From a virus: a stretch of 26,648 nucleotides of DNA. The notes under the pieces were generated by a model. It worked only from the letters and a program-made list of their open reading frames with translations. It ran no database searches and was not told where the DNA came from. Made by a program: the position numbers and the translations under genes. The stretch lies in UHGV virus genome UHGV-0191547; one strand, written 5' to 3'. Of this stretch, positions 2,325 through 25,140 are shown in pieces (within the stretch, counting starts at the first letter, position 1; each line of letters starts with the position of its first letter).

Positions 2325-3014
2325 ATGGTGAAAACTATGATTCATGTTCGAACAGGACAATTTGCGGCGGTGGTAGACGGCAGGAGGTATGCGTTTAATC
2401 CCTGCTTCGCTGCAATGGCTAAGATCGGCAGTGACAGCGAACTGGTCGAATACTTCGCAACCATCCACGGTGGCAAATATCCATCACGATTGCCAGCAGA
2501 TCCAGACCTTCGCAATCGCATTCTGGCGCGGTGTTATGGTGAGTTAGTGCAAACGTCAATACACATCCTGAAATGTTGCTCAGACAACGAAATAGGCCCG
2601 TTATTGGGTGAATGTAGGTTTACTCCTTCCGGCAAATTGCGACTAAAACCCGGACTGATGCCGACCAGTGACGTTATCACGCTGGCGCAACATTGCATGT
2701 ACCACGGTTTAATCGGTGACGGGCCAGAAGAAGACGCCGGAGAGATCCGGGAAGGGGAATATAAGCCGACTTTTAACGTGCTGGAATTCGTTTATTCTGC
2801 CGTAGCTCACCTGGGGTTATCAGAATCAGAAGCATGGAATATGACAATGACCGGATATAGAGCCGCCGTACGCGCTAAAACGCCGCCAGACGAAAGAAAC
2901 GAGAGAAGCAAGCCAAACGTTCACATAAATAAACGTGCTTATGACGAGCAAATGGAGGCCGCTAAAAAGGCACTAGAAAGAATGAAAAATCGAGAGCAAG
3001 AAAAAGCCCGGTAG
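2325..3014 (+). CDS. Tail assembly chaperone-like protein (positional, G/GT equivalent)
   Basis: 229 aa ORF immediately upstream of the tape-measure region with a basic/acidic C-terminus; no motif recognised. Confidence 0.3.
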   Translation: MVKTMIHVRTGQFAAVVDGRRYAFNPCFAAMAKIGSDSELVEYFATIHGGKYPSRLPADPDLRNRILARCYGELVQTSIHILKCCSDNEIGPLLGECRFTPSGKLRLKPGLMPTSDVITLAQHCMYHGLIGDGPEEDAGEIREGEYKPTFNVLEFVYSAVAHLGLSESEAWNMTMTGYRAAVRAKTPPDERNERSKPNVHINKRAYDEQMEAAKKALERMKNREQEKAR

Positions 3015-3029
3015 ATCCGGGCGTTTTTG
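3006..3029. terminator. Rho-independent hairpin terminator, probably bidirectional
   Basis: GCCCGG-tagat-CCGGGC stem-loop followed by GTTTTTG, with an A-run on the other side. Confidence 0.6.
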
Positions 3030-3039
3030 TTAAGTTCGC

Positions 3040-3360
3040 TTATGCTATTTTTTCGTAAAGCACATTCATCTGGGTGCGAATCACTGTTAATATATTGATT
3101 GCTGCGTTCTTATCAATGCGTTTATTCGCTACTATTTTTGTTTTCCCATCAATAACAACCAGATCTGCGTGCAATACATGGTTGAAGTTGACAATGTAAT
3201 AATACTGTTTATCGCCAACATGTTGAACATATGCACCATTTAGATTTCCTTTATACCCACAATCACGCTCTGCGACACCGAAGTCAAATTCGCGGTTCAT
3301 CTTGCGATTATATGCTACTTGTTTATGTTCCCATTTTCTCATCCATTCATCGCGCTTCAT
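3040..3360 (-). CDS. Hypothetical protein, antisense cargo cassette A
   Basis: 106 aa ORF 9 nt downstream of the lipoprotein gene on the - strand, RBS AAGGGTGA; AT-rich by eye. Confidence 0.5.
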   Translation of the reverse strand: MKRDEWMRKWEHKQVAYNRKMNREFDFGVAERDCGYKGNLNGAYVQHVGDKQYYYIVNFNHVLHADLVVIDGKTKIVANKRIDKNAAINILTVIRTQMNVLYEKIA

Positions 3361-3369
3361 GTTTCACCC

Positions 3370-4029
3370 TTAATTCCAGTTGCAAGCGTTTTTTACTTTG
3401 TCGATGTGGTTATAAAGACCATCAATGTTAAACACTGCTTTCTCAATGTCGCCAGCTTCCGGCACTACTTCAATGATAAATTGTTTTTCGTTAACCAGAT
3501 TTTTAATCATTGGGATGGCTTTTTTGTCGTTCCATAATCCAAGAGCTTTATAGTTAGTTGACCGCCCCCATTCAGTGGCTACAGCTTTGTGATCGCCGAT
3601 CCGGTAGTTAATATAAGTAGCGTCCCCGGCGTCAGTTACACGGTGTGACCATGCTACGAACATTTTTGTTTTATTACCCTGGCAAGCAATTGTTAATACC
3701 GGTTTATTATTATCCTGTGCCTTCAGTGCCGGGAAGGCATCAAGACTTCCGCTAAAATGATCTGCTTTCACAAAAAGGAACACGTTTTTTGTGTCCTGCA
3801 TATCATCTTTTCTTTCGACCACAAGCCACTGTTTACCAGCTTTTTCTTTTGCTAACTGTGCCTCATATGCGGCTTGTTTTGCTTGTTGTTCCGCAAGCCA
3901 TTTAGCATTTTTCTCAGCCAATGCTTGTTGTTCTTGAGTGGTCACTATAGGCGCTTTTTCATTATCCTCATTGCAACCAACCAGACCCAATACCGCCGCA
4001 ATCATTGCCACTTTTGCTAACTGTTTCAT
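3370..4029 (-). CDS. Lipoprotein, antisense cargo cassette A
   Basis: 219 aa; N-terminus MKQLAKVAMIAAVLGLVGC is a signal peptide with lipobox L-V-G-C; Ala/Gln/Lys-rich predicted coiled segment after the lipidated Cys. Confidence 0.65.
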   Translation of the reverse strand: MKQLAKVAMIAAVLGLVGCNEDNEKAPIVTTQEQQALAEKNAKWLAEQQAKQAAYEAQLAKEKAGKQWLVVERKDDMQDTKNVFLFVKADHFSGSLDAFPALKAQDNNKPVLTIACQGNKTKMFVAWSHRVTDAGDATYINYRIGDHKAVATEWGRSTNYKALGLWNDKKAIPMIKNLVNEKQFIIEVVPEAGDIEKAVFNIDGLYNHIDKVKNACNWN

Positions 4030-4041
4030 AACCCACCACGC

Positions 4042-4131
4042 TTAGTTTTTATTTTTAAGTGATTTTAACATTTCTTCAATGAAATCCGCATAGCGTTCAT
4101 GTTCGTTGGGACGGTAGTTTACGTTTTTCAT
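4042..4131 (-). CDS. Possible micro-ORF (29 aa, MKNVNYRPNEHERYADFIEEMLKSLKNKN) leading cassette A
   Basis: Hand-translated from the - strand; GAGGA-type RBS upstream; not in the ORF track because it is under 60 aa. Confidence 0.2.
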   Translation of the reverse strand: MKNVNYRPNEHERYADFIEEMLKSLKNKN

Positions 4132-4208
4132 TTTCTTGTCCTCTTTTGCTTCCTCCGGTTTATCCGGTCCTTTTAAATCCCTTTACTCTATCCATTTCCT
4201 TTAGCCTC

Positions 4209-4237
4209 TTTATACAAAATGTATTCGTTGAAGTGAA
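4209..4237 (-). promoter_or_regulatory. Candidate sigma70 promoter for cassette A (TTCACT-N17-TATAAA) with upstream CAAAATGG element
   Basis: - strand reads CAAAATGGC-TTCACT-17 nt-TATAAA, nearly identical to the element at 7426-7454. Confidence 0.4.
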
Positions 4238-4289
4238 GCCATTTTGTATAAAATAGAGACATAGATCACATCTTGTATGAGGTTAAATC

Positions 4290-6629
4290 ATGGCTACCAG
4301 TGTAGGTACAATTTATTACGAAGTTGATGCAAAAACTGGTCAACTTCTCGTTGCACAACGACAGGCAGACCAGGCCTTTGACCGTATAGAGCGCGGCGCA
4401 AAACAGGCTGACCGCCAGGTAAACACCCTGAAAACATCCATCAAGGCACTGACCAGGGTTATCCATTTGCTAATTGCTGCCGAGGCTGTGCGCCAATTTA
4501 TGGATATGGCGGAGCAAGCCAAAATGCTTCGCGTAAAAATCAAATTGCTTACAGGTGAAGCGGAGGCAACGGAACGGGTTTTCAACAGACTGAAAGAAAT
4601 ATCAAAAGAAACAGGCCAAAGCCTCAAGGATACTGGTGCCCTGTGGCAAGGTCTTGCTATATCGCTAAAAAACACATCCGCCACAGAAGGCCAGGTGCTC
4701 AACCTGGTCAGCACGCTGCAAAAACTTGGTAACTTGGGCGGCGTGTCTGCGGAACAACTATCAAACTCCATGCTTCAGTTCCGCCAGGCTATTGATGCTG
4801 GCGTGTTGCAGGCGGAAGAGTTCAACTCAATACGTGATAACACCCCAACAATCATACAGGAAATGGCCCGACAGATGGGGTTATCTATGGGGCAGTTCCG
4901 CGCCGAAATGCTGGACGGCAAGATCACGGCTGAAAGGATGCTCAACGCGATCCAGGCGGCTACGCAGGAAACAAACGAGAAGTTTGCACAGTTACCGCGC
5001 ACGTCCGGTATGGCTTTTAATGAGCTTAAAGTCGAGGTGATGGGACTTGTCGAACAACTTGATGATCTTTTCGGCATATCAGATGGCGTTGTGTCAGCTA
5101 TCGACTTAATAACTGGTGGCGTTGAGGGATTAGGTAAAGGCGCAAAATTCGCCGCAACCTGTTTCAATACACTAAAAACGGCTGGCAGTGAGTTTATCGA
5201 CATGTTTGATGATGTTGCTGTTAAAGCTGGTGAGGTGGCGGAAGAGATTATCAGGATGGTAACGCCAATCAAAGCGCTAATGGATGGCTACAAATGGATG
5301 AAGGAGATCATTGATAAACGCAAGAATGAGCTAAACAGCAACAACGAAAAGAAATTCGGCCCTACAGTCGGTAAGGTCATGACGTTTGCAAATGACATCA
5401 AAAATGCGACCGCCGCTTATGATGAGTTTATGCAGAAACAGGGTGAGGCTGATGACGGCAAGATCACCGGATTCGATCAGCCAGTTGGCAAGCCGAAAAA
5501 AGGGAAAAAAGACAAGAAATCTGAAGCTGATCGGCTTGGTGATGAAGGCATAAAAGTATCCGACCAGTACAACAAAGACGCCGCAGCTATGCGCAAAGCG
5601 TTAGAGAACGGCAAGGCCATTGATGCTGCATTCGCCCAGGGTAAAATCACTCTCCTTGAGTACCGCGCCGCGCAAAAAGGGATAGGTAAGGAACTGAAGG
5701 AAGAATTAGCGCAAATTCCGGTAGATGAATTGCGTGATAAATGGGCGCAAATAGTAAGCCCGATGGATCAGCTTAAAGGTGAGGTTGACCCTATCCAGCA
5801 GGTGCAGAATGAATGGGCCGTCCGTAAGCAAATGCTTATCGACCTGGGCGTTACTGAAGCGCAACAGAAACAGGAACTGTTAGCCTATGAGCAACAGATC
5901 CGTGATCTGAAGTGGGAACAGTGGCAGGCACAAAGCGATACAAACGGCCTTATCGGTGATTGCGTTAATGGCCTAAAAGGTGGTATGAGCAATGCACTTG
6001 TTGGCCTGTTAAATGGTACTCAATCATTGAGTGATGTTTTTGCTAACTTAGGCAGCAATATCCTCGGGAATATCGGTAACAGGCTTTCAGACATAGCTGC
6101 AAACTGGATAGCAGATCAGATCATGATGGAAACGCAAAGCAAAGCGACTCAGGCAAGTACCACGGCGGGCGCGGTAGCGGCGCAAGGCCAGATTGCTGCG
6201 GCGGCGGCCCCGGCGGCGGCGGCAACAGCGGCGTCAACTGGCGGCGCATGGGCGGCGGCTGGTTCTGCGGCACTCACTGCGATCATGTCGCTGGCTACGT
6301 CAATTTTCGGCGGCGGTCGCTTTAATGGTGGTAGCGTTATTGGTGGCAATATGTACCGCGTAGGGGAACACAACAGGCCGGAGCTATTCCAGACATCTAA
6401 CGGAAATCAATATATGATCCCAGGCGAGAATGGCAGGGTTATTCCTGGGCGTGATATTGGCGGTGGCGGCGGCATTAGTATGCCTGTCAATATCAACATT
6501 CAGACCACAAACGGATTTAGCGACGAAGACAGTCGCAGACTTGAGCAAACAATGGAACGTGTAGCAATGAAGATGATAACAAGGGAATCACAAAGACCTG
6601 GAGGAATATTGCAACCGCGCCGCAAATAA
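4290..6629 (+). CDS. Tail tape measure protein
   Basis: 779 aa, alpha-helical N-terminal two thirds, Ala/Gly-rich low-complexity tract (AAAAPAAAATAAS), located between chaperone and gpM homologue. Confidence 0.9.
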   Translation: MATSVGTIYYEVDAKTGQLLVAQRQADQAFDRIERGAKQADRQVNTLKTSIKALTRVIHLLIAAEAVRQFMDMAEQAKMLRVKIKLLTGEAEATERVFNRLKEISKETGQSLKDTGALWQGLAISLKNTSATEGQVLNLVSTLQKLGNLGGVSAEQLSNSMLQFRQAIDAGVLQAEEFNSIRDNTPTIIQEMARQMGLSMGQFRAEMLDGKITAERMLNAIQAATQETNEKFAQLPRTSGMAFNELKVEVMGLVEQLDDLFGISDGVVSAIDLITGGVEGLGKGAKFAATCFNTLKTAGSEFIDMFDDVAVKAGEVAEEIIRMVTPIKALMDGYKWMKEIIDKRKNELNSNNEKKFGPTVGKVMTFANDIKNATAAYDEFMQKQGEADDGKITGFDQPVGKPKKGKKDKKSEADRLGDEGIKVSDQYNKDAAAMRKALENGKAIDAAFAQGKITLLEYRAAQKGIGKELKEELAQIPVDELRDKWAQIVSPMDQLKGEVDPIQQVQNEWAVRKQMLIDLGVTEAQQKQELLAYEQQIRDLKWEQWQAQSDTNGLIGDCVNGLKGGMSNALVGLLNGTQSLSDVFANLGSNILGNIGNRLSDIAANWIADQIMMETQSKATQASTTAGAVAAQGQIAAAAAPAAAATAASTGGAWAAAGSAALTAIMSLATSIFGGGRFNGGSVIGGNMYRVGEHNRPELFQTSNGNQYMIPGENGRVIPGRDIGGGGGISMPVNINIQTTNGFSDEDSRRLEQTMERVAMKMITRESQRPGGILQPRRK

Positions 6630-6635
6630 ACGAAA

Positions 6636-6663
6636 CCCCGGTACAATGCCGGGGTTATCTTTT
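6636..6663. terminator. Rho-independent terminator after the tape-measure gene
   Basis: CCCCGG-tacaatg-CCGGGG hairpin followed by TTATCTTTT. Confidence 0.6.
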
Positions 6664-6838
6664 AGTTATTCTCAAAACTTGTATATCCTCTTTCAATTTT
6701 CCCGCCTCTTACACTTCTTGCAAATACTGCATCATTATGTTTGAAAAATGGTTCAGTATATGTGTCTCCTTTACTATCCATCCATTTCACGATCCAGGCT
6801 ATACGTTTTACATTGCTTTTATTTGCCTGGTTTTTCAT
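6662..6838 (-). CDS. Possible small protein (58 aa), third gene of cassette B
   Basis: Hand-translated - strand ORF MKNQANKSNVKRIAWIVKWMDSKGDTYTEPFFKHNDAVFARSVRGGKIERGYTSFENN with RBS GGAGGAAAATAAA before the ATG. Confidence 0.3.
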   Translation of the reverse strand: MKNQANKSNVKRIAWIVKWMDSKGDTYTEPFFKHNDAVFARSVRGGKIERGYTSFENN

Positions 6839-6956
6839 TTTATTTTCCTCCGCAAATTACAATCTTCCGTTTCTGGCTATATAGCTGCGAGAAAACATCA
6901 CCAACCAAATATTCCAGATCTCCCTCCAGGTGAATTTATCGTCCTCCATACCCACC

Positions 6957-7211
6957 TCACTTATGGCAACCGCGAACGCCAGACAATTCATTGAATTTAT
7001 GGTGTTCAACAATCACCCACTCTTTCAGATCCTGGCTATAGACTCGCCAGTCTAAATTGGCGCGGAAGGCGTAGCCGTAACCGTCTTTCAATTTTTTGGG
7101 TGACGCATTCTTGTTTAAAAACGCGTTCAAAAGTTCCTTTGCTTTTTTGACTACATGTCCCGGCGCGTTTTTCTGTGCTTTCAGATTTTTGTCAATCGCT
7201 ACCAGTTTCAT
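6957..7211 (-). CDS. Small protein with RelE/ParE-like toxin signature (candidate mRNA interferase)
   Basis: 84 aa; C-terminal KKLKDGYGYAFRANLDWRVYSQDLKEWVIVEHHKF resembles the RelE/ParE core pattern kLkG..g.yelRvgdyRviY....ilrigHRk recalled from memory. Confidence 0.4.
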   Translation of the reverse strand: MKLVAIDKNLKAQKNAPGHVVKKAKELLNAFLNKNASPKKLKDGYGYAFRANLDWRVYSQDLKEWVIVEHHKFNELSGVRGCHK

Positions 7212-7228
7212 AACTCACCCCATCATCC

Positions 7229-7384
7229 TTAGTTAAGTGCCTTCAGGAAGAAGTCCCGGTATTCATCTTCTTTTGCATTCATCATGAATTGACCGTATTT
7301 GAATGCGTCGTCGAAACCCTTAACGATTGCTATTTCCACTTGTTCGAATGCGTTGTTTAGCATTACCACTACATAGCGTTTCAT
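7229..7384 (-). CDS. Small protein (51 aa) upstream of the RelE/ParE-like gene; possible antitoxin partner
   Basis: Internal start MKRYVVVM chosen over the ORF-track start at 7459 because it has a strong RBS (GAAGGAGG, 6 nt spacing); the 7459 ATG lies inside the conserved promoter element. Confidence 0.4.
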   Translation of the reverse strand: MKRYVVVMLNNAFEQVEIAIVKGFDDAFKYGQFMMNAKEDEYRDFFLKALN

Positions 7385-7425
7385 TTTGGGCCTCCTTCGT
7401 TGGTACTGCTTTTCTTCTTGCTTTC

Positions 7426-7454
7426 TATATACATCTTGATGCGTGATATGTGAA
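7426..7454 (-). promoter_or_regulatory. Candidate sigma70 promoter for cassette B (TTCACA-N17-TATATA) with upstream CAAAATGG element
   Basis: - strand reads CAAAATGGC-TTCACA-17 nt-TATATA; 17 of 18 nt identical to the cassette A element at 4233-4250. Confidence 0.4.
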
Positions 7455-7553
7455 GCCATTTTGTAAACTAGCTATAATCATTGTGATGAAGATCTCATTT
7501 TTTGCGTAGAATCGCGTAAAAGTATATACAAAATGTAAATTATAGGGGGATTT

Positions 7554-7907
7554 ATGCCTGAAGTGTTCCGATGGACACCACAAAGAAGCTACAGCGTAAA
7601 CAGTGAGCCTAACGTGTCTGTCATTAAGCTGGGTGATGGGTATGAACAGCGCCAGACAAAAGGGATTAACCCTTTACTTGATAGCTACAGCCTGGTTTTT
7701 AAAGGCACAAGCGCCGGATGCGGTGACGCCGGAAACGTGGCGCTCCAAGTTGACGCATTTTTAAGGGCGCGTTGCGCGGTCGAGGCGTTTTACTGGACTC
7801 CATCAACTGACGGGGTGCAAAGGCTTTTTGTATGCAGAAAGTGGAGCATGACGAAAGACGGCCCGGTATGCACGCTAAACGCAACTTTTGAGCAAGTTGT
7901 CAATTAA
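7554..7907 (+). CDS. M: Minor tail protein M
   Basis: 117 aa; FRWTP...GDGYEQR and C-terminal ATFEQVVN match the lambda gpM pattern (recalled ...FSAEFEQVVN). Confidence 0.85.
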   Translation: MPEVFRWTPQRSYSVNSEPNVSVIKLGDGYEQRQTKGINPLLDSYSLVFKGTSAGCGDAGNVALQVDAFLRARCAVEAFYWTPSTDGVQRLFVCRKWSMTKDGPVCTLNATFEQVVN

Positions 7908-7920
7908 TGGAGGTGTCAAT

Positions 7921-8106
7921 ATGTATGCTATTTGTGTAGTGGACCGCACGGGCGCTTTTACATTGTTTGACGACTATGAAATCAACGATCTTACTGTAAA
8001 GGCTGATAATGGCGAGATCTGGTATCTTCATGATGTTGGTGACGGGTATGTCGGATGCAGATCGAGAGAGGGTAGGGAAGTTTTATTTTTACTTGATGGC
8101 GTATAA
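7921..8106 (+). CDS. Small hypothetical protein (61 aa) inserted between M and L in sense orientation
   Basis: Start MYAICVV with RBS GGAGGTG; followed directly by a strong hairpin terminator; lambda has no gene here. Confidence 0.4.
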   Translation: MYAICVVDRTGAFTLFDDYEINDLTVKADNGEIWYLHDVGDGYVGCRSREGREVLFLLDGV

Positions 8107-8111
8107 ACACG

Positions 8112-8140
8112 ACCCCGCGCGAAGCGGGGTTATTATTATT
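8112..8140. terminator. Rho-independent terminator (CCCCGC-gcgaa-GCGGGG then TTATTATTATT)
   Basis: Hairpin plus T-rich tail; 8112-8134 is the exact reverse complement of 16307-16329. Confidence 0.6.
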
Positions 8141-8252
8141 CCATTTCCATTAACGCTATATTTTCTGCTATCGTTTTCCAGTCCAGATCTACAGCATGAA
8201 CACCAAATACTATCAATCCCATTGCGATTAGTGCTAAAACTTCGATTTTCAT
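8136..8252 (-). CDS. Possible small hydrophobic peptide (38 aa), last gene of cassette C
   Basis: Hand-translated MKIEVLALIAMGLIVFGVHAVDLDWKTIAENIALMEME with GTGAGG RBS; one predicted hydrophobic helix. Confidence 0.25.
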   Translation of the reverse strand: MKIEVLALIAMGLIVFGVHAVDLDWKTIAENIALMEME

Positions 8253-8343
8253 AATCAACCTCACTTAATTAAGAAAGGCATAAACGATGGCAATCGCGCC
8301 AGCCACTACCAAAACATTTCGATCACTTCGTCTACTTTATTGA

Positions 8344-8547
8344 TTAAGGTAACTCCACTTCGTTAAATGTAACAAGCACCCCTTGATTTTCTTTATTTAT
8401 AATTATGAAGGCATTAATTGAAGGCAGACATCTTTCCACGCGGTAAACGTCACCAATATCTAAACTGTAATATTCTGTTAATTCTCTATTGTTCCCTTTA
8501 GCAAAACCCGTAAACCTAACCATTTTTTGACCGTCGTACTTTAACAT
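8344..8547 (-). CDS. Hypothetical protein (67 aa), cassette C
   Basis: - strand ORF with AGGA RBS, tightly packed with neighbours; AT-rich. Confidence 0.45.
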   Translation of the reverse strand: MLKYDGQKMVRFTGFAKGNNRELTEYYSLDIGDVYRVERCLPSINAFIIINKENQGVLVTFNEVELP

Positions 8548-8555
8548 ATACAGTC

Positions 8556-8804
8556 CTATAGGTTATCACGCAGATAATTAACGCCTTTGTCAGTGACGAA
8601 TGAGTGATTAACCTGGTTTTCATCCGTCATGATGATGAATGACTTTTCCTGTAGGTATTTCGCTTTTGGGTACAGCGTTAAACAGACCTGGTACAGTATC
8701 CCGCGCTCAATCAGCAAATCAATAAATTCGTGCTCATGATAACCGACGAGGCGGGCGGCTTGTTTCAACGTGTACACATAATCGCCGTGATTGCGCCGCC
8801 CCAT
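8556..8804 (-). CDS. Hypothetical protein (82 aa), cassette C; possible helix-turn-helix
   Basis: Segment YTLKQAARLVGYHEHEFIDLLIERGIL has a helix-turn-helix-like pattern; no family recognised. Confidence 0.45.
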   Translation of the reverse strand: MGRRNHGDYVYTLKQAARLVGYHEHEFIDLLIERGILYQVCLTLYPKAKYLQEKSFIIMTDENQVNHSFVTDKGVNYLRDNL

Positions 8805-8813
8805 GTTGCCGCC

Positions 8814-9161
8814 TTATTTATCGAATGCGCCCAGGTTATCTATGCAGAAGTCTTTCGCAGCTTTTTCGTATTCGCGTTTTGCTTGCGGATCGTCTGCCGG
8901 GAAACCTTTTGCGTGTATTTCACCAGGGCAAGACTGATCCATAGAATCAGCAAATTCAACATTGACGTTAAAGTTAATATCTTTCGGATTCATGTTTTCC
9001 ACCTCATCAATTATCTGCACCGGATTAGCGGCATATTTCACTGGATGGCCTAAACTACATTCAAGAATCCTTCCTTCTTCCAAAGCTGCCTCTTCGCTAT
9101 CAAATAATCCGAAACACTCCTTGCAACCACTTAACCACACATCAAGACTATATTTTTGCAT
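8814..9161 (-). CDS. Hypothetical Cys-containing acidic protein (115 aa), cassette C
   Basis: - strand ORF with GAGAGG RBS; CKEC...C...SCPGEIH cysteines suggest possible metal binding. Confidence 0.5.
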   Translation of the reverse strand: MQKYSLDVWLSGCKECFGLFDSEEAALEEGRILECSLGHPVKYAANPVQIIDEVENMNPKDINFNVNVEFADSMDQSCPGEIHAKGFPADDPQAKREYEKAAKDFCIDNLGAFDK

Positions 9162-9173
9162 TTCGTTAACCTC

Positions 9174-9329
9174 TCATTTGACAGGTTCGATTCTGTACCC
9201 CAAAACGCGTTCGTCTTCAGCGAGTAATAGCGCGTCAGTCAGTGCCTCGCCTTCGTCTTTATACAGAGCTACAGTCATTTCCCTGCCACCTGACAGGAAT
9301 ACCTTCAACCTCCACACCTTATCAGCCAT
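9174..9329 (-). CDS. Hypothetical small protein (51 aa from MADKVWRL), first gene of cassette C
   Basis: Internal start preferred (RBS GGAGGTG, 6 nt spacing); the ORF-track start at 9404 overlaps the predicted -35. Confidence 0.4.
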   Translation of the reverse strand: MADKVWRLKVFLSGGREMTVALYKDEGEALTDALLLAEDERVLGYRIEPVK

Positions 9330-9375
9330 CTCACACCTCCGCGCCATTTTGTTAACTGTGCTTCCGTTTGAGTAA

Positions 9376-9404
9376 AATATACATATTGTATAAACCGCGA
9401 TCAA
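9376..9404 (-). promoter_or_regulatory. Candidate sigma70 promoter for cassette C (TTGATC-N17-TATATT) with upstream CCAAAATGG element
   Basis: - strand reads CCAAAATGGA-TTGATC-17 nt-TATATT; same architecture as the cassette A and B elements. Confidence 0.35.
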
Positions 9405-9458
9405 TCCATTTTGGTATGATTTAGCGTGACGCAGATCACAAAATCAGAAGGTGAGAAA

Positions 9459-10163
9459 ATGCGCAATATACCTACAGAGATGATTATTGATTCCGTGGAC
9501 GCTGGTGTGGGCGCGGTGATTGACTTGTTCGAACTGGACTTGTCGCCCCTGGGTGGCGAGGTTATCCGCTTCCATTCCGGCGCGAATGGCTATTACGGCC
9601 CGGTTATCTGGAAGGGATTAACTTACAACAGCTACCCGATCGAGGCTACTGGCTTCGAAATGAAAAACGAGGGCGTTTATTCGCGGCCTCAAATGGTTGT
9701 AGCCAATATCGGCGGGCTAATCACAGGGATGAATAACGACTTCAACGACCTGCGAGGAATGAAGGTTACGCGCCGCCAGGTGGAAGTAAAATACCTGGAC
9801 GCCGTTAACTTCCCAAACGGCAATCCAGACGCAGATCCATCTATTGAGGCTGTATCTTTTTACGTCGTGGAGGCCATGAGCGAGGAAACAGCGGATCAGG
9901 TGCAATATGAGCTGTCAACGCCAATTGATGCTGATAAGGCCGTTATCCCTGGGCGCACCATCCTTGCTGACGTTTGCCAGTGGCAATACAGAGGCGACGG
10001 GTGTATGTACGCTGGCGGACCAGTAGCAAACGATAAAGACGAGCCGACAAGCGATCCTAAAGCCGACAGATGCAGCCACCGTCTAAGCGGTTGTCGTTTG
10101 CGTTTCCCGCGTCCAAATCCGTTACCGATTTCCTGTTTCCCTGGTTCCAGTAAGGTAGGTTAA
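9459..10163 (+). CDS. L: Minor tail protein L
   Basis: Start at MRNIPTEM (RBS AGGTGAG); VTRRQVEVKYLDAVNF and PGRTILADVCQWQYRGDGC match recalled lambda gpL blocks. Confidence 0.85.
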   Translation: MRNIPTEMIIDSVDAGVGAVIDLFELDLSPLGGEVIRFHSGANGYYGPVIWKGLTYNSYPIEATGFEMKNEGVYSRPQMVVANIGGLITGMNNDFNDLRGMKVTRRQVEVKYLDAVNFPNGNPDADPSIEAVSFYVVEAMSEETADQVQYELSTPIDADKAVIPGRTILADVCQWQYRGDGCMYAGGPVANDKDEPTSDPKADRCSHRLSGCRLRFPRPNPLPISCFPGSSKVG

Positions 10164-10165
10164 TC

Positions 10166-10897
10166 ATGGTAATGGAAGACAAAATGTTGCGTTATGCCGC
10201 CGCGCATCCGTTTGAAGAAGTTTGCGGACTGGTAATAGATAACGAATATTTTTACCCGTGCGCTAACGTGTCTGAAACGCCCTACAACAGCTTCAAAATT
10301 TCGCCGGACGATTACATCAAAGCTGACGAATTGGGCGTTATAACCGCCGTTTTTCACTCTCACGTTGATGATATTCCGGTATTGTCGGCACGGGATCGAC
10401 AACAGCAGGTTATTTCAGGACTACCCTGGCTTTTGTATTCAGGCGGAAGGATCAGGAAATTCCGTCCGGTAGCGCACCTGTTAGGCAGAAAATTTGAACA
10501 CGGGAAAACAGACTGCTACGCGCTTTTCCGCGACGCCTATCACCTTTGCGGCGTGGATCTGCCTGACTTCGAGCGCCTTGATGGGTGGTGGTTGCGTGGT
10601 GAAAACCTGTATTTAAAAAACTTGCCTCTAAACGGGTTTTTCCAGGTTGACGCTAAAAGCATACAGCCTGGAGATGTAATTATCCGGCAGCCGTTTAAAG
10701 GCGCGGACCCATGCCACGCGATGATTTACCTGGGCGATAACACTGTTTTGCATCATGACAATGCCGGACTGCTAAGCCGCCGCGAGCAAATGCGGCCCGC
10801 TTATGTTCGACAAACGCATTCAATATGGAGATCTGATAAATGCTCAAATTTAGATTTACGGGCAATCTTCGAAGATATTACAGCAAAGTGTGTTTAA
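10166..10897 (+). CDS. K: Tail tip assembly protein K (NlpC/P60 plus JAB/MPN-like domains)
   Basis: FHSHVDD (JAMM-like) and GKTDCYALFRDAYHL (NlpC/P60 Cys) motifs; collinear with lambda gpK in my recalled alignment. Confidence 0.85.
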   Translation: MVMEDKMLRYAAAHPFEEVCGLVIDNEYFYPCANVSETPYNSFKISPDDYIKADELGVITAVFHSHVDDIPVLSARDRQQQVISGLPWLLYSGGRIRKFRPVAHLLGRKFEHGKTDCYALFRDAYHLCGVDLPDFERLDGWWLRGENLYLKNLPLNGFFQVDAKSIQPGDVIIRQPFKGADPCHAMIYLGDNTVLHHDNAGLLSRREQMRPAYVRQTHSIWRSDKCSNLDLRAIFEDITAKCV

Positions 10898-11370
10898 ACG
10901 TTGAAACGCCAGCGCAAGGACTTCGCTTGTTGACCGCGCAGAATCAGGAATTCAAGAAGGCGTTTTTAAATACACCTTTGCGTTTACGAATTTCCGGGAA
11001 AGATTACGACGAAAAGACCGCGCCCGCTGCGGTTAATAGCAAATATCCAGATGGGACTACGGTAATTATTGCGCCAATAGTGGAAGGTGGTATTGCAGGG
11101 ATCGGTGTGGTCGGTTGGATTATGATCGGAATATCAGTTGTTAGTGTCGCATTTTCTATTTTCATGTCTCGCAACATGAAGGTGAAAACATCATCAGAAA
11201 GCGCACAGGATAACACCATAACAAACAACAGTTACACCAGCATAGAAAACAGGGTGGGCCAGGGTAGACCAGTGCCAATTTTATTGGGTGAAATGAAAGT
11301 AGGTTCAAACGTCGGATCGTTAGGCATAGACACAACAAACAATAAAGACGCCTTAGACGTTGTAAGTTAA
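10840..11370 (+). CDS. I: Tail assembly protein I
   Basis: GEMKVGSNVGS matches recalled lambda gpI GEMRVGSRVVS; Gly-rich hydrophobic central segment; overlaps the K 3' end in another frame. Confidence 0.8.
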   Translation: MLKFRFTGNLRRYYSKVCLNVETPAQGLRLLTAQNQEFKKAFLNTPLRLRISGKDYDEKTAPAAVNSKYPDGTTVIIAPIVEGGIAGIGVVGWIMIGISVVSVAFSIFMSRNMKVKTSSESAQDNTITNNSYTSIENRVGQGRPVPILLGEMKVGSNVGSLGIDTTNNKDALDVVS

Positions 11371-11384
11371 CAGGAGAAATAACC

Positions 11385-14300
11385 ATGAGTAGCGGCGGCG
11401 GCAAAGCAAAAACACCAACTTTAATTAACGATAATCTATATCACAAACAGTTTTATCGTGTACTCGACATTATTTCAGAAGGTCCGATTTATGGTCCTGT
11501 TAATACCAATGCGCCATTAAACAGCGTAATGCTTAATGACACCCCTGTAACTGACGCGAACGGCAATACCAGCATCCCCGGTATTAGCGTAGCGTGGCGC
11601 AATGGTACGATAGATCAATCACCGATTAACGGTTTTAACGCCATTGAATCAACCGTTATTGTTAACGCACAGGTTAAACACGATACACCAATAATCAGGA
11701 CCGTTTCCGATCCTAACGTAAACCGCGTTCGCCTGAATATCGGCGTCGATTCACTTGTACAATCTGACGAGCAAAGCAATCAACATAACACATCGGTTAT
11801 GATGATGATTGACGTGAAGCCTTCGTCTTCTTCTACGTGGACGCTTGTTAAAGACGTTACTATAGGCCCAGGTAAGATCAGCGGAGAATATCTTGAAGCG
11901 CATATTATCAATGCACCAGATGAAAAACCGTTTGATATTCGCGTTCGCCGTGTAACCGCTGATAGCACAAGCGATCTGTTGCAGAATGATACGCGATGGA
12001 GTAGCTACAGCGAAATAATCGACGATAATTTGTCTTATCCTCACACCGCTGTAGCTGGCGCGGTAATTGACCATGATCAGTACGCTGACACGCCTACCCG
12101 CACCTATCACCTTCGCGGGCTGATTGTTGATATTCCTGATAACTACGACCCGGAAAAGCGCACTTATTCCGGTTTGTGGCTTGGCGGCTTCAAACAGGCG
12201 TACACCAATAACCCAGCATGGATCTTCCGCTATCTGGTTAAAAACGAGCGTTTCGGCCTTGCTCGTCACGCTGGCTATATTGACGTTGACGACGGCGCAT
12301 TATATACGCTTTCTCAATACTGCGACCAGTTGGTTGATGATGGCTACGGCGGCCTTGAGCCTCGCATGACGCTTAACGCTTACATCACAGAGCAAATGAG
12401 CGCCCGCGACTTACTGGACAATATCGCCGGGATGTTCAGGGGTATCGCGTTATGGGACGGGCAACGCCTTACCGTGATGATTGATGCACCACAAGACCCG
12501 ATCGCCACCATTACAAATGCAAATGTCGTTGATGGCGCGTTTACTCGTTCAAGTATCGCCCGCGCAGAATGCTACAACGCCGTGATCGTATCATGGACTG
12601 ACCCGGAAAACGGATGGGAGCAATCAAAAGAGTATGTAGCAGACGATGAACTGATCGCCCGTGATGGTTACAACGAAACCACGTTAGAGGCGTTCGGGTG
12701 CACATCACGCGGGCAAGCATACCGCGCGGGCAAGTGGCTGATAGAAACAGCAAAACGCGAGCCGTCAAAATTCACGTTTAAAATGGCGCGTGACGCGATT
12801 CACTTTACGCCAGGGGATATTATCGAGATACTCGACAATAACCGCGCAGGCGCTCGTTTAGGCGGCCGCATCGTTGCGAACAACGGCAAAGTAATAACGG
12901 TAGATAAGGTTGACGCCAATTATATCGCCGCTGGGGATACAATCAGCCTTCTTGATAGCGATGGCAAGTTTAAAAAGCATCAGATCACCGGGGTGAGCGG
13001 AAACAAAATCACACTGGCGGCGGCCCCGTCATGGATTCGAAACGGCACTGTTTTTGCTGTATCCACTGAATCAGCAAAACCCGTTTTGTGCCGGATCACC
13101 AGTGTAGCCGAAACAGAAAATAACAGCGTGTACACCATCGAGGCCGCACAGCACGACCCGAACAAGCAAGCAGTGGTCGATGAAGGCGCAATATTTGAAG
13201 TCAACAATGACACGCTTAACCATTTCCGCGTGCCGAACATTGAAAATCTGAAGGTGGTAAACATTGGATCGGAAACAATTCAATGTCGCGCCACATGGGA
13301 AACGCAGACAACAACGCATCGTATGACATTTGAGATCCGCATATATAATGCAGATGGTGCGGTGGTTAAAAGCTATGAAACAACGAAATACAGTTATGAT
13401 TTTTATGGCATTGACGCTGGCGTGTATTCTTTAGGGGTTCGCGGAAGAAATGACACTGGCATGAAGGGCGCGGAAAGTATTGTGGATCTGGTTATTGGTG
13501 CGCCAGCAGCGCCAATAGGTGTTAACTGGGTACCAGGTGTATTTCAGGCTACCGTATACCCGATAAGTAAGACAACGCTAACCACTGATACAGCGTATGA
13601 ATTCTACTATGCAGGGGAAAACCAGATCACAGATCCGGCAAAAATAACCACGGCGGCACAGTTTACCGGGCGCGGGTATCAGTGGACGTTCGGCGGAATG
13701 AACACGGGCCATACTTATTACGTTTATGTGCGTACACGTAATGCTTTTGGCGTGTCAGACTTCGTTGAAGCATCAGGTAAGCCGACAGAAAATTTTGATG
13801 AAATTAGCGATTACGTCACCAAAGACGTGATGAATTCCGAACAATTTAAAGAAATGGTGGGCGACATTAAGGATCTTGGCGATCGCACTGACATTATCGA
13901 AAGTGCAACTCAAGACCTTAAAACAGCTACTGATACCCTAAGCGGAATAACTGAAGGCTTAAGAACTGATACTGATAATTTAATTACAGAAACAGAATCA
14001 ATTAAAGCTGATACTGATTCCCTTAAAAAAGACACTGAAGACCTTTACAAGAAAGTCGAAGAAAACGCCGATGAAATAGGTAAACATGAGGTAAGAATTG
14101 ACTCATTAGAGGTATCAAGCGAAAACGTAGATAATGAACTGGCACAGACAAAAGCAAGCCTACAAAACGCATCGCTTGCTCTTATTAATAATTCGCTTGC
14201 TCAAACTAATACCAGAAGAACGCTGACAGCTCAGATCAAAAACGTGGATTATGAAACTAAGGCGCAAATAGATCGCATTGATAACGTGATTGTCAGTGAA

Positions 14301-16304
14301 AAAGAAGCAAGAGCGGAGGCAATGGAGACAATTACCGCCGAAATCGACACGATGGATAAAAACATCAAAGGTGAGATTGCGCGCGTAGATACTGCCATTG
14401 CCAATGAGAGCCAGGCAAGGGCTGATGCCATCAGTGAAGTTAGCGCAAACATTGACGCACTTGATAGTAAAACAGATGCCAGTGTTAATCGTCTTGATCA
14501 AGCTATCGCAGATGAGGCCAGCGCACGCGCACAGGCTATCAGCAATGTCAATGCGAGCATGACAAATCTTGATAACAAGGTTACAAGCAACGTTTCTAGA
14601 CTTGATCAGGCAATAGCTGACGAATCAAGCGCAAGAGCAGAAGCCGATGATCAGTTAATAGCAAAAAGCGAAAAACTTGATGGTGATCTCGCTATGGCAA
14701 GGGCAAGCCTACAAAACGCTTCGCTTGCTCTCATCAATAATACATTGTCTCAGACAAAGACAAGGCGCACTCTCACAGCGGAGTTCAAACGCGGACAAAG
14801 TGAAACTAAAGCACAAATTGACCGTATTGATAATGTCATTACTGACGAAAAACAGGCAACAGCGGAAGCGTTTGAAACTATCACAGCAGAAATGAACACG
14901 ATGGACTCAAACATTAAAGGAGAAATATCACGATTAGATAAAGTGATCGCGACTGAAACGCAAGCAAGATCTGAAGCTATAAGTAGTGTTAATGCAAGCA
15001 TAAAGACGCTAGAAAGCGACACTGAAGCCAGCGTTAACCGTCTTGATCAGGCAGTTGCTGACGAGGCCAGCGCCCGCGCACAAGCTATCAGCGGAGTAAA
15101 TGCAAGCATCAGCACGCTTGATAGCAAGGTTACAAGCAATGTGACCCGTATCGACAAAGCTATTGCAGATGAGACGCAGGCCCGCACAGACGCAATAAGC
15201 AACCTTAACTCATCGCTTACCAGTACGATTAATTCTAAAGTATCTGAAGTATCAACAGCACTTTCTACGCATGAAGCATCAAGCGCGGAAAAATTCAGCC
15301 AGATCTCAGCGTCTTTCGAAGCTGTAAACTCAAGCATCACGGAATGGTCGCAGACCATGACAACGGCGGACGAGGCATTATCAACCAAAATTGATCAGTT
15401 AACAGTAACCGTTAATGGGAACACAACAGCGATCGAGACGACATCGAAAGCGTTAACCGACTTCAAAGGTAATGTTGATGCGTCATGGTCAATCAAGATT
15501 GCTACTGATAACAACGGCATGAAATACGCTACAGGTATGTCGCTTGGCCTGACTGGTAGCGGGACTAACGTTCAATCGCAGTGTATTTTCCTCGTTGACC
15601 GCTTCGTGTTAATGACCGCAGCAAACGGCACATATACAACGCCTTTCTATGTGTCTAATGGTGCAATGTATGTGAAAGAAGCGTTTATTAAAAACGCATC
15701 AATAGGTACAGCTAAAATTGCAGATGCAGCCATTACTATGGCTAAAATTGTTAATGAAATAAAATCATCAAACTATGTTGCTGGTTCTAAAGGTTGGAGG
15801 ATAACACAAAGCGGATCATCAGAATTTAACGATGTTGTGGTAAGGGGCGAAATCCATGCTAATAGCGGTAAATTCAAAGGAACTGTAGAAGCTACATCCT
15901 TTGTTGGTGATGTCGCATCTACTAACGTTATACCGCAATCATCATTCCCTGGGACAAGTACAAGCGGATCTCGATCTGTTACGAAGACGTATAAAGATTC
16001 ATCATCAAGCTCGCTTTCGAAAACAGTTTTCGTAATGATTCCTTACCATCTTACTTATTATACTTATTCAGGATCATCAACAATAAAAGTAACAATTGAT
16101 ATTAATGGCAATAGCAAAACATATAACGTAGTAAGGGCGGCATCATCGCCTCAATTCGGATTTACGGTATCACATTGCGTAACTGGGATTACTGCTCAAA
16201 CAGTTACGATAAAAATAACAGAGGAATACACCAACACCGGAACATCAGCAGAAAGAAGGCCAGGTCTTGCACTTGTTACAAGAAGCTCAGGATCATGGTC
16301 ATAA
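11385..16304 (+). CDS. J: Central tail fibre / host specificity protein J with an expanded coiled-coil repeat region
   Basis: 1639 aa; N-terminal ISEGPIYGP, FGCTSRGQAYRAGKWL and the C-terminal KYATGMSLG...FLVDRF block match recalled lambda gpJ; about 500 aa of heptad-like repeats inserted between them. Confidence 0.9.
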   Translation: MSSGGGKAKTPTLINDNLYHKQFYRVLDIISEGPIYGPVNTNAPLNSVMLNDTPVTDANGNTSIPGISVAWRNGTIDQSPINGFNAIESTVIVNAQVKHDTPIIRTVSDPNVNRVRLNIGVDSLVQSDEQSNQHNTSVMMMIDVKPSSSSTWTLVKDVTIGPGKISGEYLEAHIINAPDEKPFDIRVRRVTADSTSDLLQNDTRWSSYSEIIDDNLSYPHTAVAGAVIDHDQYADTPTRTYHLRGLIVDIPDNYDPEKRTYSGLWLGGFKQAYTNNPAWIFRYLVKNERFGLARHAGYIDVDDGALYTLSQYCDQLVDDGYGGLEPRMTLNAYITEQMSARDLLDNIAGMFRGIALWDGQRLTVMIDAPQDPIATITNANVVDGAFTRSSIARAECYNAVIVSWTDPENGWEQSKEYVADDELIARDGYNETTLEAFGCTSRGQAYRAGKWLIETAKREPSKFTFKMARDAIHFTPGDIIEILDNNRAGARLGGRIVANNGKVITVDKVDANYIAAGDTISLLDSDGKFKKHQITGVSGNKITLAAAPSWIRNGTVFAVSTESAKPVLCRITSVAETENNSVYTIEAAQHDPNKQAVVDEGAIFEVNNDTLNHFRVPNIENLKVVNIGSETIQCRATWETQTTTHRMTFEIRIYNADGAVVKSYETTKYSYDFYGIDAGVYSLGVRGRNDTGMKGAESIVDLVIGAPAAPIGVNWVPGVFQATVYPISKTTLTTDTAYEFYYAGENQITDPAKITTAAQFTGRGYQWTFGGMNTGHTYYVYVRTRNAFGVSDFVEASGKPTENFDEISDYVTKDVMNSEQFKEMVGDIKDLGDRTDIIESATQDLKTATDTLSGITEGLRTDTDNLITETESIKADTDSLKKDTEDLYKKVEENADEIGKHEVRIDSLEVSSENVDNELAQTKASLQNASLALINNSLAQTNTRRTLTAQIKNVDYETKAQIDRIDNVIVSEKEARAEAMETITAEIDTMDKNIKGEIARVDTAIANESQARADAISEVSANIDALDSKTDASVNRLDQAIADEASARAQAISNVNASMTNLDNKVTSNVSRLDQAIADESSARAEADDQLIAKSEKLDGDLAMARASLQNASLALINNTLSQTKTRRTLTAEFKRGQSETKAQIDRIDNVITDEKQATAEAFETITAEMNTMDSNIKGEISRLDKVIATETQARSEAISSVNASIKTLESDTEASVNRLDQAVADEASARAQAISGVNASISTLDSKVTSNVTRIDKAIADETQARTDAISNLNSSLTSTINSKVSEVSTALSTHEASSAEKFSQISASFEAVNSSITEWSQTMTTADEALSTKIDQLTVTVNGNTTAIETTSKALTDFKGNVDASWSIKIATDNNGMKYATGMSLGLTGSGTNVQSQCIFLVDRFVLMTAANGTYTTPFYVSNGAMYVKEAFIKNASIGTAKIADAAITMAKIVNEIKSSNYVAGSKGWRITQSGSSEFNDVVVRGEIHANSGKFKGTVEATSFVGDVASTNVIPQSSFPGTSTSGSRSVTKTYKDSSSSSLSKTVFVMIPYHLTYYTYSGSSTIKVTIDINGNSKTYNVVRAASSPQFGFTVSHCVTGITAQTVTIKITEEYTNTGTSAERRPGLALVTRSSGSWS
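14154..15200 (+). repeat. Intragenic tandem duplication in J (two diverged units of about 550 bp, roughly 183 aa each)
   Basis: Both units open with GCAAGCCTACAAAACGC (14154 and 14704) and contain nested VNRLDQA(I/V)ADE(A/S)SARA sub-repeats. Confidence 0.8.
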
Positions 16305-16306
16305 AA

Positions 16307-16335
16307 AATAACCCCGCTTCGCGCGGGGTTTTCTT
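16307..16335. terminator. Rho-independent terminator after J (CCCCGC-ttcgc-GCGGGG then TTTTCTTTT)
   Basis: Hairpin plus T-run; reverse complement of the 8112-8134 element. Confidence 0.6.
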
Positions 16336-16584
16336 TTAGTAGTTAGCTACACAATTCGACGGGCTACCTATGCGGCGCATGTTGTGATCGAGTTCATGAC
16401 ACCATTGACCAGTATATGGCAGTTTTTCAGTGTCATATACAAGATGACCATTAGCATCATAGACGATTTCTTGTGGAATCACTCCGCTATTTGGCAGGTT
16501 ATGCAATGCAGCTTCTTTGTCAACAGCGCAACCAGTAAGAGCAACAGCCGCAGCGAATAAAACCACTTTGAACATGTTTTTCAT
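16336..16584 (-). CDS. Small lipoprotein (82 aa), antisense cassette D between J and the tail fibre
   Basis: MKNMFKVVLFAAAVALTGC signal peptide with lipobox A-L-T-G-C; single gene between two terminators. Confidence 0.6.
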   Translation of the reverse strand: MKNMFKVVLFAAAVALTGCAVDKEAALHNLPNSGVIPQEIVYDANGHLVYDTEKLPYTGQWCHELDHNMRRIGSPSNCVANY

Positions 16585-16761
16585 TTTTTAATCCTCGTTC
16601 TTGTTAGCTCATCCGGTTCATCCGGTGGCTTAAATATCCGACAAAACCACATTTCGTATATTGATATAAATCAATAAATACATTTTGTATAAGTCAAAAA
16701 TGTAACATAGATCACAAAATGGTAGAATTATTCCGTTAATTAACATAATGGAGTCATTGCG

Positions 16762-18552: not shown

Positions 18553-18581
18553 GAGGTGATGTGCGAAGAACATCGCCGCGC

Positions 18582-23964: not shown

Positions 23965-23982
23965 TATGGCATCGCCTCCGGT

Positions 23983-25101: not shown

Positions 25102-25140
25102 AATGTTATTTCCTCCGGTTTACATATTGTATATTCATTG

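Follow-up and report, generated by a model that had tools for sequence, protein, structure and literature searches.

Four antisense gene islands in the lambda-type tail region of an mEp021-like coliphage genome are probably inherited slots with exchangeable cargo

The tail genes of lambda-like phages are usually described as a single contiguous late transcript with an occasional moron. Here we analyse UHGV virus genome UHGV-0191547, a stretch of 26,648 nucleotides (nt) that we call the window, in which five segments of same-direction tail genes are parted by four islands of antisense genes. As in the lambda tail operon, V-G/T-H-M-L-K-I-J, homologues of M, L, K, I and J (Pfam and PHROGs) occur in the same order and orientation. 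Unlike in lambda, H, M and L are non-contiguous, a gene of 61 amino acids (aa) follows M, a DUF6246 gene replaces G/GT, and candidate internal promoters lie before the tape-measure, M, L and fibre genes. The genes from H to J do not form one contiguous single-strand block: a gap of 924 nt separates H from M and one of 1352 nt separates the M segment from L, both of them filled by minus-strand genes.

The mEpimmI group of temperate coliphages, described in 2025 (PMC11893012), has the same gene order, the same four islands and the same types of Lpp lipoprotein downstream of J; the tail regions are 84–93% identical to that of the window, and the cargo combination of the window differs from that of every relative. 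The phage group, its annotation and the function of Lpp are already published, and the paper is silent on antisense organization, morons, tail-region promoters and a junction motif (PMC11893012). As far as we can tell, the fixed-slot architecture, the core and variable tiers of genes, the deep turnover of content and the shared junction motif have not been described before.

Two further systems offer a comparison. A moron is defined as an addition that is absent from close relatives, and the moron gene 15 of HK97 lies at the junction between the chaperone and tape-measure genes, which is the place of island 1 (PMC3594210). The morons of HK97 and HK022 resemble the islands as extra genes in a late tail operon, with differing GC content and a terminator of their own, and both HK97 gp15 and the homologue of the Lpp encoded in island 4 exclude superinfecting phages. 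Unlike morons, the slots described here are permanent, antisense and four in number, two of them hold group-wide genes, and one junction motif is common to them. Genes antisense to prophage lytic genes are recognized accessory loci (PMC7067206, PMC3594210). In Salmonella, STMMW_20121 and the BTP1 antisense RNA STnc6030 are independently transcribed units antisense to late or tail genes that are active in the lysogen, and one of them mediates exclusion (PMC7067206). The Salmonella loci are single and one is non-coding, whereas the window has four predicted multi-gene coding units with conserved junctions.

Fixed slots with two tiers of genes

We consider it probable (about 0.6) that the window carries four inherited antisense slots, present group-wide and with contents in two tiers, conserved genes and exchangeable cargo, rather than four recent insertions. 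Minus-strand open reading frames (ORFs) occupy 3040–4131, 6662–7384, 8136–9329 and 16336–16584 (islands 1 to 4) and a sense ORF lies at 7921–8106, exactly where the original prediction for this DNA, which our analysis followed up, had placed them. The comparison set comprised 59 relatives (6 phages, 10 prophages and 43 IMG/VR genomes). Island occupancy was scored only where both flanking genes could be placed, in 49, 58 and 59 genomes for islands 1, 2 and 3, and counts for island 4 rest on 32 informative relatives. Islands 1–3 are occupied in every measurable relative (49/49, 58/58 and 59/59, with minimum lengths of 693, 681 and 966 nt), and in the annotations of the 6 phages and 10 prophages antisense genes stand at these four junctions. 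At least one prophage (STEC308) has an empty island 4.

Five of the antisense genes are near-universal. Two form the core of island 2: an 84-aa ParE-like gene (6957–7211; Pfam ParE_like PF24732; 58/58 relatives; dN/dS 0.07) and a promoter-proximal 51-aa gene (7229–7384; phrog_29810, 9e-40; 55/58; dN/dS 0.04). The core of island 3 consists of an 82-aa KilAC-domain gene (8556–8804; Pfam ANT PF03374; 59/59; dN/dS 0.10), a 115-aa gene (8814–9161; phrog_38567; 59/59; dN/dS 0.16) and a second 51-aa gene (9174–9329; phrog_29559; 56/59; dN/dS 0.21). The cargo is patchy, with individual genes present in 6/54 to 40/59 relatives. Most variable genes of islands 2 and 3 are found towards the terminator, with the core genes nearer to the promoter end: the terminator-proximal gene of island 2 encodes 58 aa (6662–6838; 30/58; GC 33.9%; dN/dS 0.10), and island 3 adds a 42-aa hydrophobic peptide (8136–8264; 40/59; GC 35.7%) and a 67-aa protein (8344–8547; GC 34.3%). 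Island 1 encodes a 106-aa protein of no family (3040–3360; GC 37.4%), a 219-aa VasI/TagO-like lipoprotein (3370–4029; signal peptide and lipobox LVGC; phrog_1848; dN/dS 0.20) and a promoter-proximal 29-aa leader ORF that was read from the sequence (MKNVNYRPNEHERYADFIEEMLKSLKNKN; 4042–4131; dN/dS 0.03) and is kept in 35/54 relatives irrespective of the cargo downstream. Island 4 holds a single gene for an 82-aa Lpp type-C lipoprotein (16336–16584; phrog_12984, 4e-27). The cargo set of the window (106-aa protein, VasI-like lipoprotein, 67-aa protein and Lpp type C) occurs together in no single relative. Clustering of ORFs gives island 1 at least 8 alternative protein families across the relatives, nearly all with a signal peptide, a lipobox or membrane helices, and island 2 of some relatives holds HNH endonucleases or a zinc-ribbon/T5orf172 protein.

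Pairwise comparison of up to 45 distinct alleles per gene gave dN/dS values of 0.03–0.21 for all antisense ORFs except the 42-aa ORF (0.34, from just 4 pairs), against 0.05–0.10 for the tail genes. Because this signature indicates purifying selection, we treat the antisense ORFs as real genes and reject the idea that they are chance frames. A check of GC content per cassette also bore out the impression that the islands are more AT-rich than the tail genes (39.7% against 47.0% in the sense segments). Among sense stretches of equal length, GC was as low in 0 of 714–865 for islands 1–3 and in 21 of 1064 for island 4. The ParE-like, KilAC-domain and island-3 51-aa core genes (43–49%) barely differ from the sense genes; the island-2 51-aa and the 115-aa genes have about 40–41%, the rarer cargo genes 34–37%, and the VasI-like and Lpp genes 42–43%.

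The slots are, on comparison with more divergent genomes, older than their present contents. One divergent relative, L064 (tail tube 75%, L 80%, tape measure 51% and DUF6246 58% identical), has antisense islands at junctions 1–3, and in it we detected none of the antisense proteins of the window, nor the 61-aa sense gene. Since this genome keeps the islands with entirely different genes, we date the slots before what they now hold and apply the term 'core' only within the mEpimmI group proper. In two still more distant relatives, L061 and L062 (DUF6246 38–40% identical), the DUF6246 gene leads directly into the tape measure and all genes lie on one strand. We therefore interpret the slot at junction 1 as derived, having arisen after these lineages split.

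The original prediction had proposed four separate insertions, that is, independent morons placed into a lambda-type tail operon that had once been contiguous, and probably all accessory cargo expressed by the lysogen. Several features do fit the moron definition (PMC3594210): the islands are AT-richer and have their own predicted terminators, distant relatives run from DUF6246 straight to the tape measure, and alignment to the relatives shows variable cargo at fixed junctions, as had been anticipated, with patchy presence of the VasI-like (18/54), Lpp (15/32), 106-aa (6/54) and 67-aa (9/59) genes. Single cargo genes are absent from close relatives, as befits a moron; islands 1–3 and the core genes are not. 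Occupancy of islands 1–3 in all measurable relatives, and in the deeper-branching L064, makes four independent insertions very unlikely, as do the conservation of the five near-universal genes at the level of tail genes (median identity of the KilAC-domain gene 96%) and the persistence of the slots through full turnover of their contents. Moreover, the DNA of the junctions is more conserved than the cargo and one motif occurs in all four slots, which argues for a common inherited design. The description as moron cargo suits islands 1 and 4, and islands 2 and 3 at their distal ends; it does not suit the permanent slots or the core genes. The prediction had further set the antisense genes apart from conserved core genes of tail assembly, and the comparison partly contradicts it here: five are near-universal, with the KilAC-domain gene in 59/59. 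Nothing indicates that they have a role in tail assembly.

Terminators and junctions

In every island a predicted terminator lies 5–18 nt past the last antisense stop, between convergent stop codons. All four are bidirectional hairpins with G+C stems and T-runs on both strands; their minimum free energy is −13 to −17 kcal/mol, and their z-scores against shuffled sequence range from −3.5 to −4.6 (plus strand) and from −2.4 to −4.5 (minus strand). T1 (3006–3022; z −3.8 and −4.5 on the plus and minus strands) has a 6-bp G+C stem with T-runs on both strands, overlaps the stop codon of the DUF6246 gene and lies 18 nt from the stop of the antisense 106-aa gene; terminators are annotated likewise at this position in mEp010, mEp013, mEp044, mEp515 and mEp021. 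T2 (6634–6656; z −4.6 and −2.8) has a 10-bp stem and −17.2 kcal/mol, and T3 (8111–8131; z −4.3 and −2.4) and T4 (16310–16330; z −3.5 and −4.0) complete the series. The islands had been described as bracketed by hairpin terminators. The hairpins are real, but only the left edge of each island has one; the right edge is a hairpin-free divergent intergenic region of 130–180 nt with a predicted regulatory role. The islands do look like independent minus-strand units with their own predicted terminators, in keeping with that description.

T3 and T4 consist of the same 19 nt (ACCCCGCGCGAAGCGGGGT) in opposite orientations, and T2 has the same AACCCCG...CGGGGTT stem ends; this likeness suggests that the slots have exchanged terminator modules or that these have a common origin. 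Another G+C hairpin, also with T-runs (2302–2316), stands between the tail tube and DUF6246 genes, where a terminator is annotated in relatives, and may attenuate transcription past the major tail protein gene.

At the right edges, the 60–110 nt that precede the tape-measure, M, L and fibre genes hardly vary between genomes, whatever cargo adjoins them. On the sense strand, all four junctions carry a conserved −10 or extended −10 word, set at a constant distance from the start codon. (Ungapped identity of the junctions is deflated by 1-nt indels and was not used.) Junction 1 (4132–4289) is near-invariant in 17 aligned genomes although the neighbouring cargo differs. It contains the near-palindrome TACAAAATGTA (4213–4223), a GATCACA box (4264–4270) and CATTTTGTATAAA words that face both ways (plus strand, 4240–4252; minus strand, 4221 down to 4209); TTTTGTATAAAAT, upstream of the tape measure, is found in 53/56 genomes at a fixed distance from the ATG. 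Junction 2 (7385–7553) contains GTGAAGCCATTTTGTA (7450–7465), a TATAAT (7473–7478) that is kept upstream of M in 59/60 genomes at 80–82 nt from the start codon, a small hairpin (about 7504–7520) and a second copy of the near-palindrome (7527–7537).

Junction 3 (9330–9458) has a leftward sigma-70-like sequence, TTGATC-N17-TATATT (9404 down to 9376), whose hexamer words are kept in 51–59 of 60 genomes, together with a 15-nt perfect palindrome, TATACATATTGTATA (9378–9392), and a rightward extended −10, TGGTATGAT (9409–9417). Its conserved words are AATATACA (59/60 genomes), TGGTATGAT (49/60) and CCATTTTGTT[AG]AC (59/60). In junction 4 (16585–16761) we find the inverted repeat TATTGAT-ATAA-ATCAATA (16660–16677), the near-palindrome TACATTTTGTA (16679–16689) and GATCACAAAATGGTAGAAT, with an extended −10 (16710–16728); TGGTAGAAT precedes the fibre gene in 27/33 genomes, 42 nt from the ATG. 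Junctions 1 and 4 share a leader module made up of ACCGGATNAACCGGA, a ribosome-binding site and an ORF that starts MKN. The module spans 4123–4170 and 16576–16632 and includes ACCGGAT(A/G)AACCGGA, and the start region of the 58-aa gene (6830–6853) is similar.

The 11-nt near-palindrome TACAWWWTGTA marks all four junctions; 0.06 copies would be expected in the window, and 5 occur. The relatives (940 kb) have 137, and 131 of these lie no more than 200 nt upstream of one of the four genes at which the sense strand restarts. In the window the motif centre is 72, 22, 74 and 78 nt before the sense start codons, taking the start of L as 9459. A related word, CATTTTGTA, has 6 copies in the window (0.4 expected) and 11 in the complete mEp021 genome, where 9 copies are intergenic, 1 is inside the portal gene and 1 is at the stop boundary of gp17 (N-like). 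Copies of one or the other word are at 2378, 6065, 11927, 12609, 20078 and 20144 in mEp021 and at 20042 and 25121 in the window. Among the mEp021 copies of CATTTTGTA, one follows the gp33 methyltransferase gene, one adjoins a candidate early promoter and others stand between early-left genes; nutR2 of mEp021 has been placed in the intergenic region downstream of gp33 (PMC11893012), and the boxA and early-promoter assignments near these copies are our own tentative reading. The two words may be a phage-wide promoter or operator word, and at the junctions the motif may act as a promoter core, an operator or both. We did not adopt it as a nut/boxA site or a CI operator: the region upstream of the mEp021 repressor has a different palindrome, AAGGTATGTACCTT, and the motif copy closest to the repressor gene is possibly inside coding sequence. 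A 31-nt translation-start module that precedes two early-left genes of the window (23962–23992 and 25099–25129; CAT..TCCTCCGGTTTACATAWTG on the plus strand) holds a variant of the junction word directly upstream of the ribosome-binding site. Scans of the window with Rfam and for tRNAs returned nothing.

Such regular spacing could mean that the antisense units are mainly regulatory, with convergent transcription that silences or meters the tail genes, near-palindromes bound by a phage regulator, possibly the KilAC-domain protein, and cargo coding as a secondary matter. We think this unlikely. The fixed distances to the sense starts are what it would predict, as are palindrome arms of 5–6 bp at three junctions, expected of a dimeric site, and motif variants that persist in L064 under different cargo; the intergenic placement of 9/11 CATTTTGTA copies in mEp021 points the same way. 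The KilAC-domain gene has a mean dS of 0.32, against 0.6–1.0 in neighbouring tail genes, which hints at recent sweeps, recombination or extra constraint on the DNA or RNA, and in Salmonella an antisense RNA in the tail region of the BTP1 prophage acts in exclusion (PMC7067206). However, all the antisense ORFs are under purifying selection at the protein level, so protein coding is no mere by-product. The palindrome is often degenerate rather than exact across genomes (26/55 at junction 1, 34/59 at junction 2), DNA binding by the KilAC-domain protein is plausible but unproven, its structural model being of low confidence, and the motif overlaps plausible −10 elements and may be plain promoter sequence. 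It is likewise doubtful that the junctions form one regulatory system, in which a dimeric phage protein on TACA-N3-TGTA, with the KilAC-domain protein as candidate, would coordinate the five tail segments and four antisense units. If so, each tail segment would have its own setting of gene dosage or timing and of silencing in the lysogen, unlike the single antiterminated late transcript of lambda.

Predicted functions of the antisense proteins

T5 Llp and the Cor proteins of phi80, N15 and mEp167 are receptor-blocking exclusion lipoproteins encoded beside the receptor-binding gene. The island-4 gene of the window resembles them as a small lipoprotein gene adjoining the host-specificity gene J, and in different genomes island 4 contains Lpp type A, Lpp type C or Cor (annotated in the UMNK88 prophage). 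Searches with Lpp type C detected no similarity to Cor or Llp and returned phrog_12984 only. The Lpp of the window (MKNMFKVVLFAAAVALTGC; lipobox LTGC) shares 94% identity with mEp010 gp116 (Lpp010) along its whole length; when expressed from a plasmid, Lpp010 excluded mEp010, mEp044, mEp554 and lambda (PMC11893012). mEp013, the Lpp of which differs from Lpp010 by one signal-peptide residue, escaped this exclusion (PMC11893012), so sequence similarity between phages does not guarantee which of them are excluded. We infer from the phage panel of that paper that the target is LamB (PMC11893012). The Lpp of the window is thus a putative superinfection-exclusion protein, and the only island gene to have experimental support, by homology.

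The VasI-like lipoprotein of island 1 matches Pfam VasI (PF11319; 2.3e-14; 53.9 bits against a cut-off of 26.5). Its score against the NCBIfam VasI equivalog TIGR03360, 41.6 bits, is below the cut-off of 124.2, and it is encoded in a tail operon without genes of a type VI secretion system (T6SS). On these grounds we rejected it as a T6SS component; the protein appears to share a domain with VasI and no more. For the 106-aa protein there was no match in Pfam, PHROGs, NCBIfam or PADLOC.

The ParE-like protein of island 2 scores 32.1 bits against Pfam ParE_like (1.2e-7; cut-off 24.4) and falls into two allele classes, of about 63% and more than 90% identity. Its AlphaFold model, built on a 12-sequence alignment, was unusable (pLDDT 47.3). 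The gene order fits a ParE/ParD-type toxin–antitoxin pair with the 51-aa gene (7229–7384 and 6957–7211), a candidate that we downgraded when co-variation proved absent: the 51-aa protein is 100% identical in genomes in which the ParE-like allele is just 62–67% identical (L009, L010, L011 and L014), and the UMNK88 prophage has the ParE-like gene without the 51-aa gene. Pfam and NCBIfam gave no match of the 51-aa protein to an antitoxin family.

The KilAC-domain protein of island 3 is just above threshold in Pfam ANT (2.3e-6; 28.3 bits against 25.3), and its median identity of 96% across the relatives equals that of L and K. An exhaustive HMMER search of 1.84 billion representatives gave only 2 clusters, its own and one weak match, too few for a deep alignment, and a scan of one genome per species found no relatives; the protein thus seems essentially confined to the mEpimmI phage group. 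The single-sequence AlphaFold model was too poor to use (pLDDT 58.7). A sequence search of the PDB with the ParE-like, KilAC-like and VasI-like proteins gave nothing meaningful, and an NCBIfam scan of the island proteins returned only the sub-threshold VasI match.

A working model

In the explanation that we favour, inherited slots with conserved genes and exchangeable cargo, each slot would be an independent leftward transcription unit with its own promoter, in which a conserved divergent control region leads into the minus-strand genes and then to a terminator shared with the preceding sense gene. The cargo would consist mostly of signal-peptide, lipoprotein and membrane proteins that act at the cell envelope and protect the lysogen or the infected cell, a role suggested because the Lpp homologue blocks phages with the same receptor. 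Cargo would be swapped by recombination inside the conserved junction and terminator sequences; the switches of the best-matching relative at or near islands and the leader module shared by junctions 1 and 4 support this step. Rightward late transcription could cross the slots by Q-type antitermination (gp37 of mEp021 is Q-like and its gp17 N-like; PMC11893012), by restarting at the −10 or extended −10 elements of the junctions, or by both, and convergent late transcription would then silence the antisense units during lytic growth.

Several points weigh against this explanation. The promoters, their direction and their timing are predictions, and a near-consensus antisense sigma-70 promoter was found in junction 3 only, junctions 1, 2 and 4 being without a good −35. 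The mosaic-breakpoint analysis is coarse, with bins of 500 nt. The slot-free relatives L061 and L062 are short contigs without recognizable M or L, and only junction 1 can be compared in them. None of ten island proteins matched a defence family in PADLOC, and the five core genes are without assigned function. Finally, mEp021 gp80, a 311-aa DUF6453 gene that lies antisense in island 4 (18450–19385 of mEp021; also in L013 and L014), is annotated as a virion structural protein, which fits lytic expression better than lysogenic conversion. The virion proteins of mEp021 were mapped by mass spectrometry (PMC11893012), and gp80 would then be part of the virion, from a gene that runs antisense to those of the tail. 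Given this annotation, antisense need not mean expression in the lysogen only.

The gp80 annotation raises the alternative that the conserved antisense genes belong to the lytic programme, as early or middle, assembly or virion factors, with true lysogenic-conversion cargo limited to the Lpp-type genes. The conserved antisense genes match the tail genes in degree of conservation, the KilAC-like protein is counted as core in the published manual analysis (PMC11893012), and the HNH endonucleases in island 2 of some relatives are typical lytic-phase genes. We judge it decidedly unlikely all the same, for no mEp021 homologue of the core antisense genes of the window is flagged as a virion protein and the UMNK88 prophage is without the 51-aa island-2 gene. 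L064, moreover, has a homologous tail (L 80% identical) without any core antisense gene, so these genes are not required by this type of tail.

Phage identity and neighbouring genes

The 14.7-kb region of the window that we compared matches seven phage records at 84–93% nucleotide identity (MagusPhagus, mEp010, mEp013, mEp021, mEp044, mEp515 and mEp554), with alignments to the mEp021 group that cover 71–85% of the region for 5 phages and about 60% for 2 more. About 35 matching prophages were found among 5,426 complete E. coli genomes. The tail proteins are 77–99% identical to those of the mEpimmI group, and the integrase is followed downstream by early-left genes, as in mEp021. The closest record has 93% identity across 85% of the region and none is near-identical; the best-matching relative changes along the region, with switches at or near islands (500-nt bins). 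For these two reasons we classify the window as a new mosaic member of the mEpimmI group. The repressor and the N-like Gp17 with nut sites that further characterize the group belong to the immunity region, which falls outside the window. The fibre gene continues into the integrase gene, whereas in prophages the fibre adjoins host genes, and we accordingly read the window as an unintegrated form of the genome.

The sense genes, all on the plus strand, begin in this region with the tail tube (1807–2283; Pfam and PHROGs) and the DUF6246 gene (2325–3014; Pfam PF19759, 6e-55; phrog_791), the last sense gene before island 1. The latter occupies the place of lambda G/GT, with T1 overlapping its stop and antisense genes directly after, which leaves no room downstream for a G/GT-type frameshift extension. 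The label 'chaperone' that it had been given suits its position; DUF6246/phrog_791 is a family of unknown function that adds no further support, and a chaperone role is suggested by position only. After island 1 comes the tape measure, the H equivalent (4290–6629; Pfam TMP_3, 3.6e-48), and after island 2 are M (7554–7907; Pfam Phage_min_tail, 1.5e-29) and the 61-aa gene (7921–8106; phrog_3249), which is present in 59/59 relatives and always 8–15 nt past M. L (9459–10163; Pfam Phage_tail_L, 1.4e-71) probably starts at ATG 9459 rather than GTG 9426, because the L genes of relatives are 705 nt long. K (10166–10897; Pfam NLPC_P60), I (10840–11370; tail assembly protein, phrog_32) and J (11385–16304; five Pfam J domains) follow. 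J contains a 300-nt internal repeat (14117–14416 and 14666–14965, 70% identical), in agreement with the reported presence of repeats that differ in length in its C-terminal part. Beyond island 4 is a tail fibre with an S74 chaperone domain (16762–18552; Pfam Peptidase_S74, 1.5e-14).

Between the fibre and the integrase (18817–20064; Pfam and PHROGs), the spacer at 18582–18862 has a strong terminator (18582–18605), three copies of TATCGTGTCAYATCGT (18730–18808) and a perfect 22-nt direct repeat (18610–18631 and 18841–18862), the second copy of which is within the integrase ORF. This spacer is probably the attP region with arm-type sites of the integrase. Farther downstream, three tandem copies of about 173 nt (25490–26049; 75–83% identical) lie inside a minus-strand gene (25141–26058) and probably encode zinc-ribbon modules like those of mEp021 gp12 and of the zinc-ribbon protein in island 2 of mEp013.

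Significance

If the slots are inherited as we propose, four antisense slots are a permanent feature of the tail-tip genes in a common group of gut coliphages. These phages would then offer a natural system for study both of the swapping of accessory and exclusion genes at fixed sites and of the way in which convergent transcription is tolerated or used by a late operon. The slots would be predictable places in which to search for new envelope-acting exclusion proteins, slot 1 alone holding at least 8 unrelated families, and such cargo could be located in prophages by way of the conserved junction sequences. New phage biology might also come from the five conserved antisense genes.

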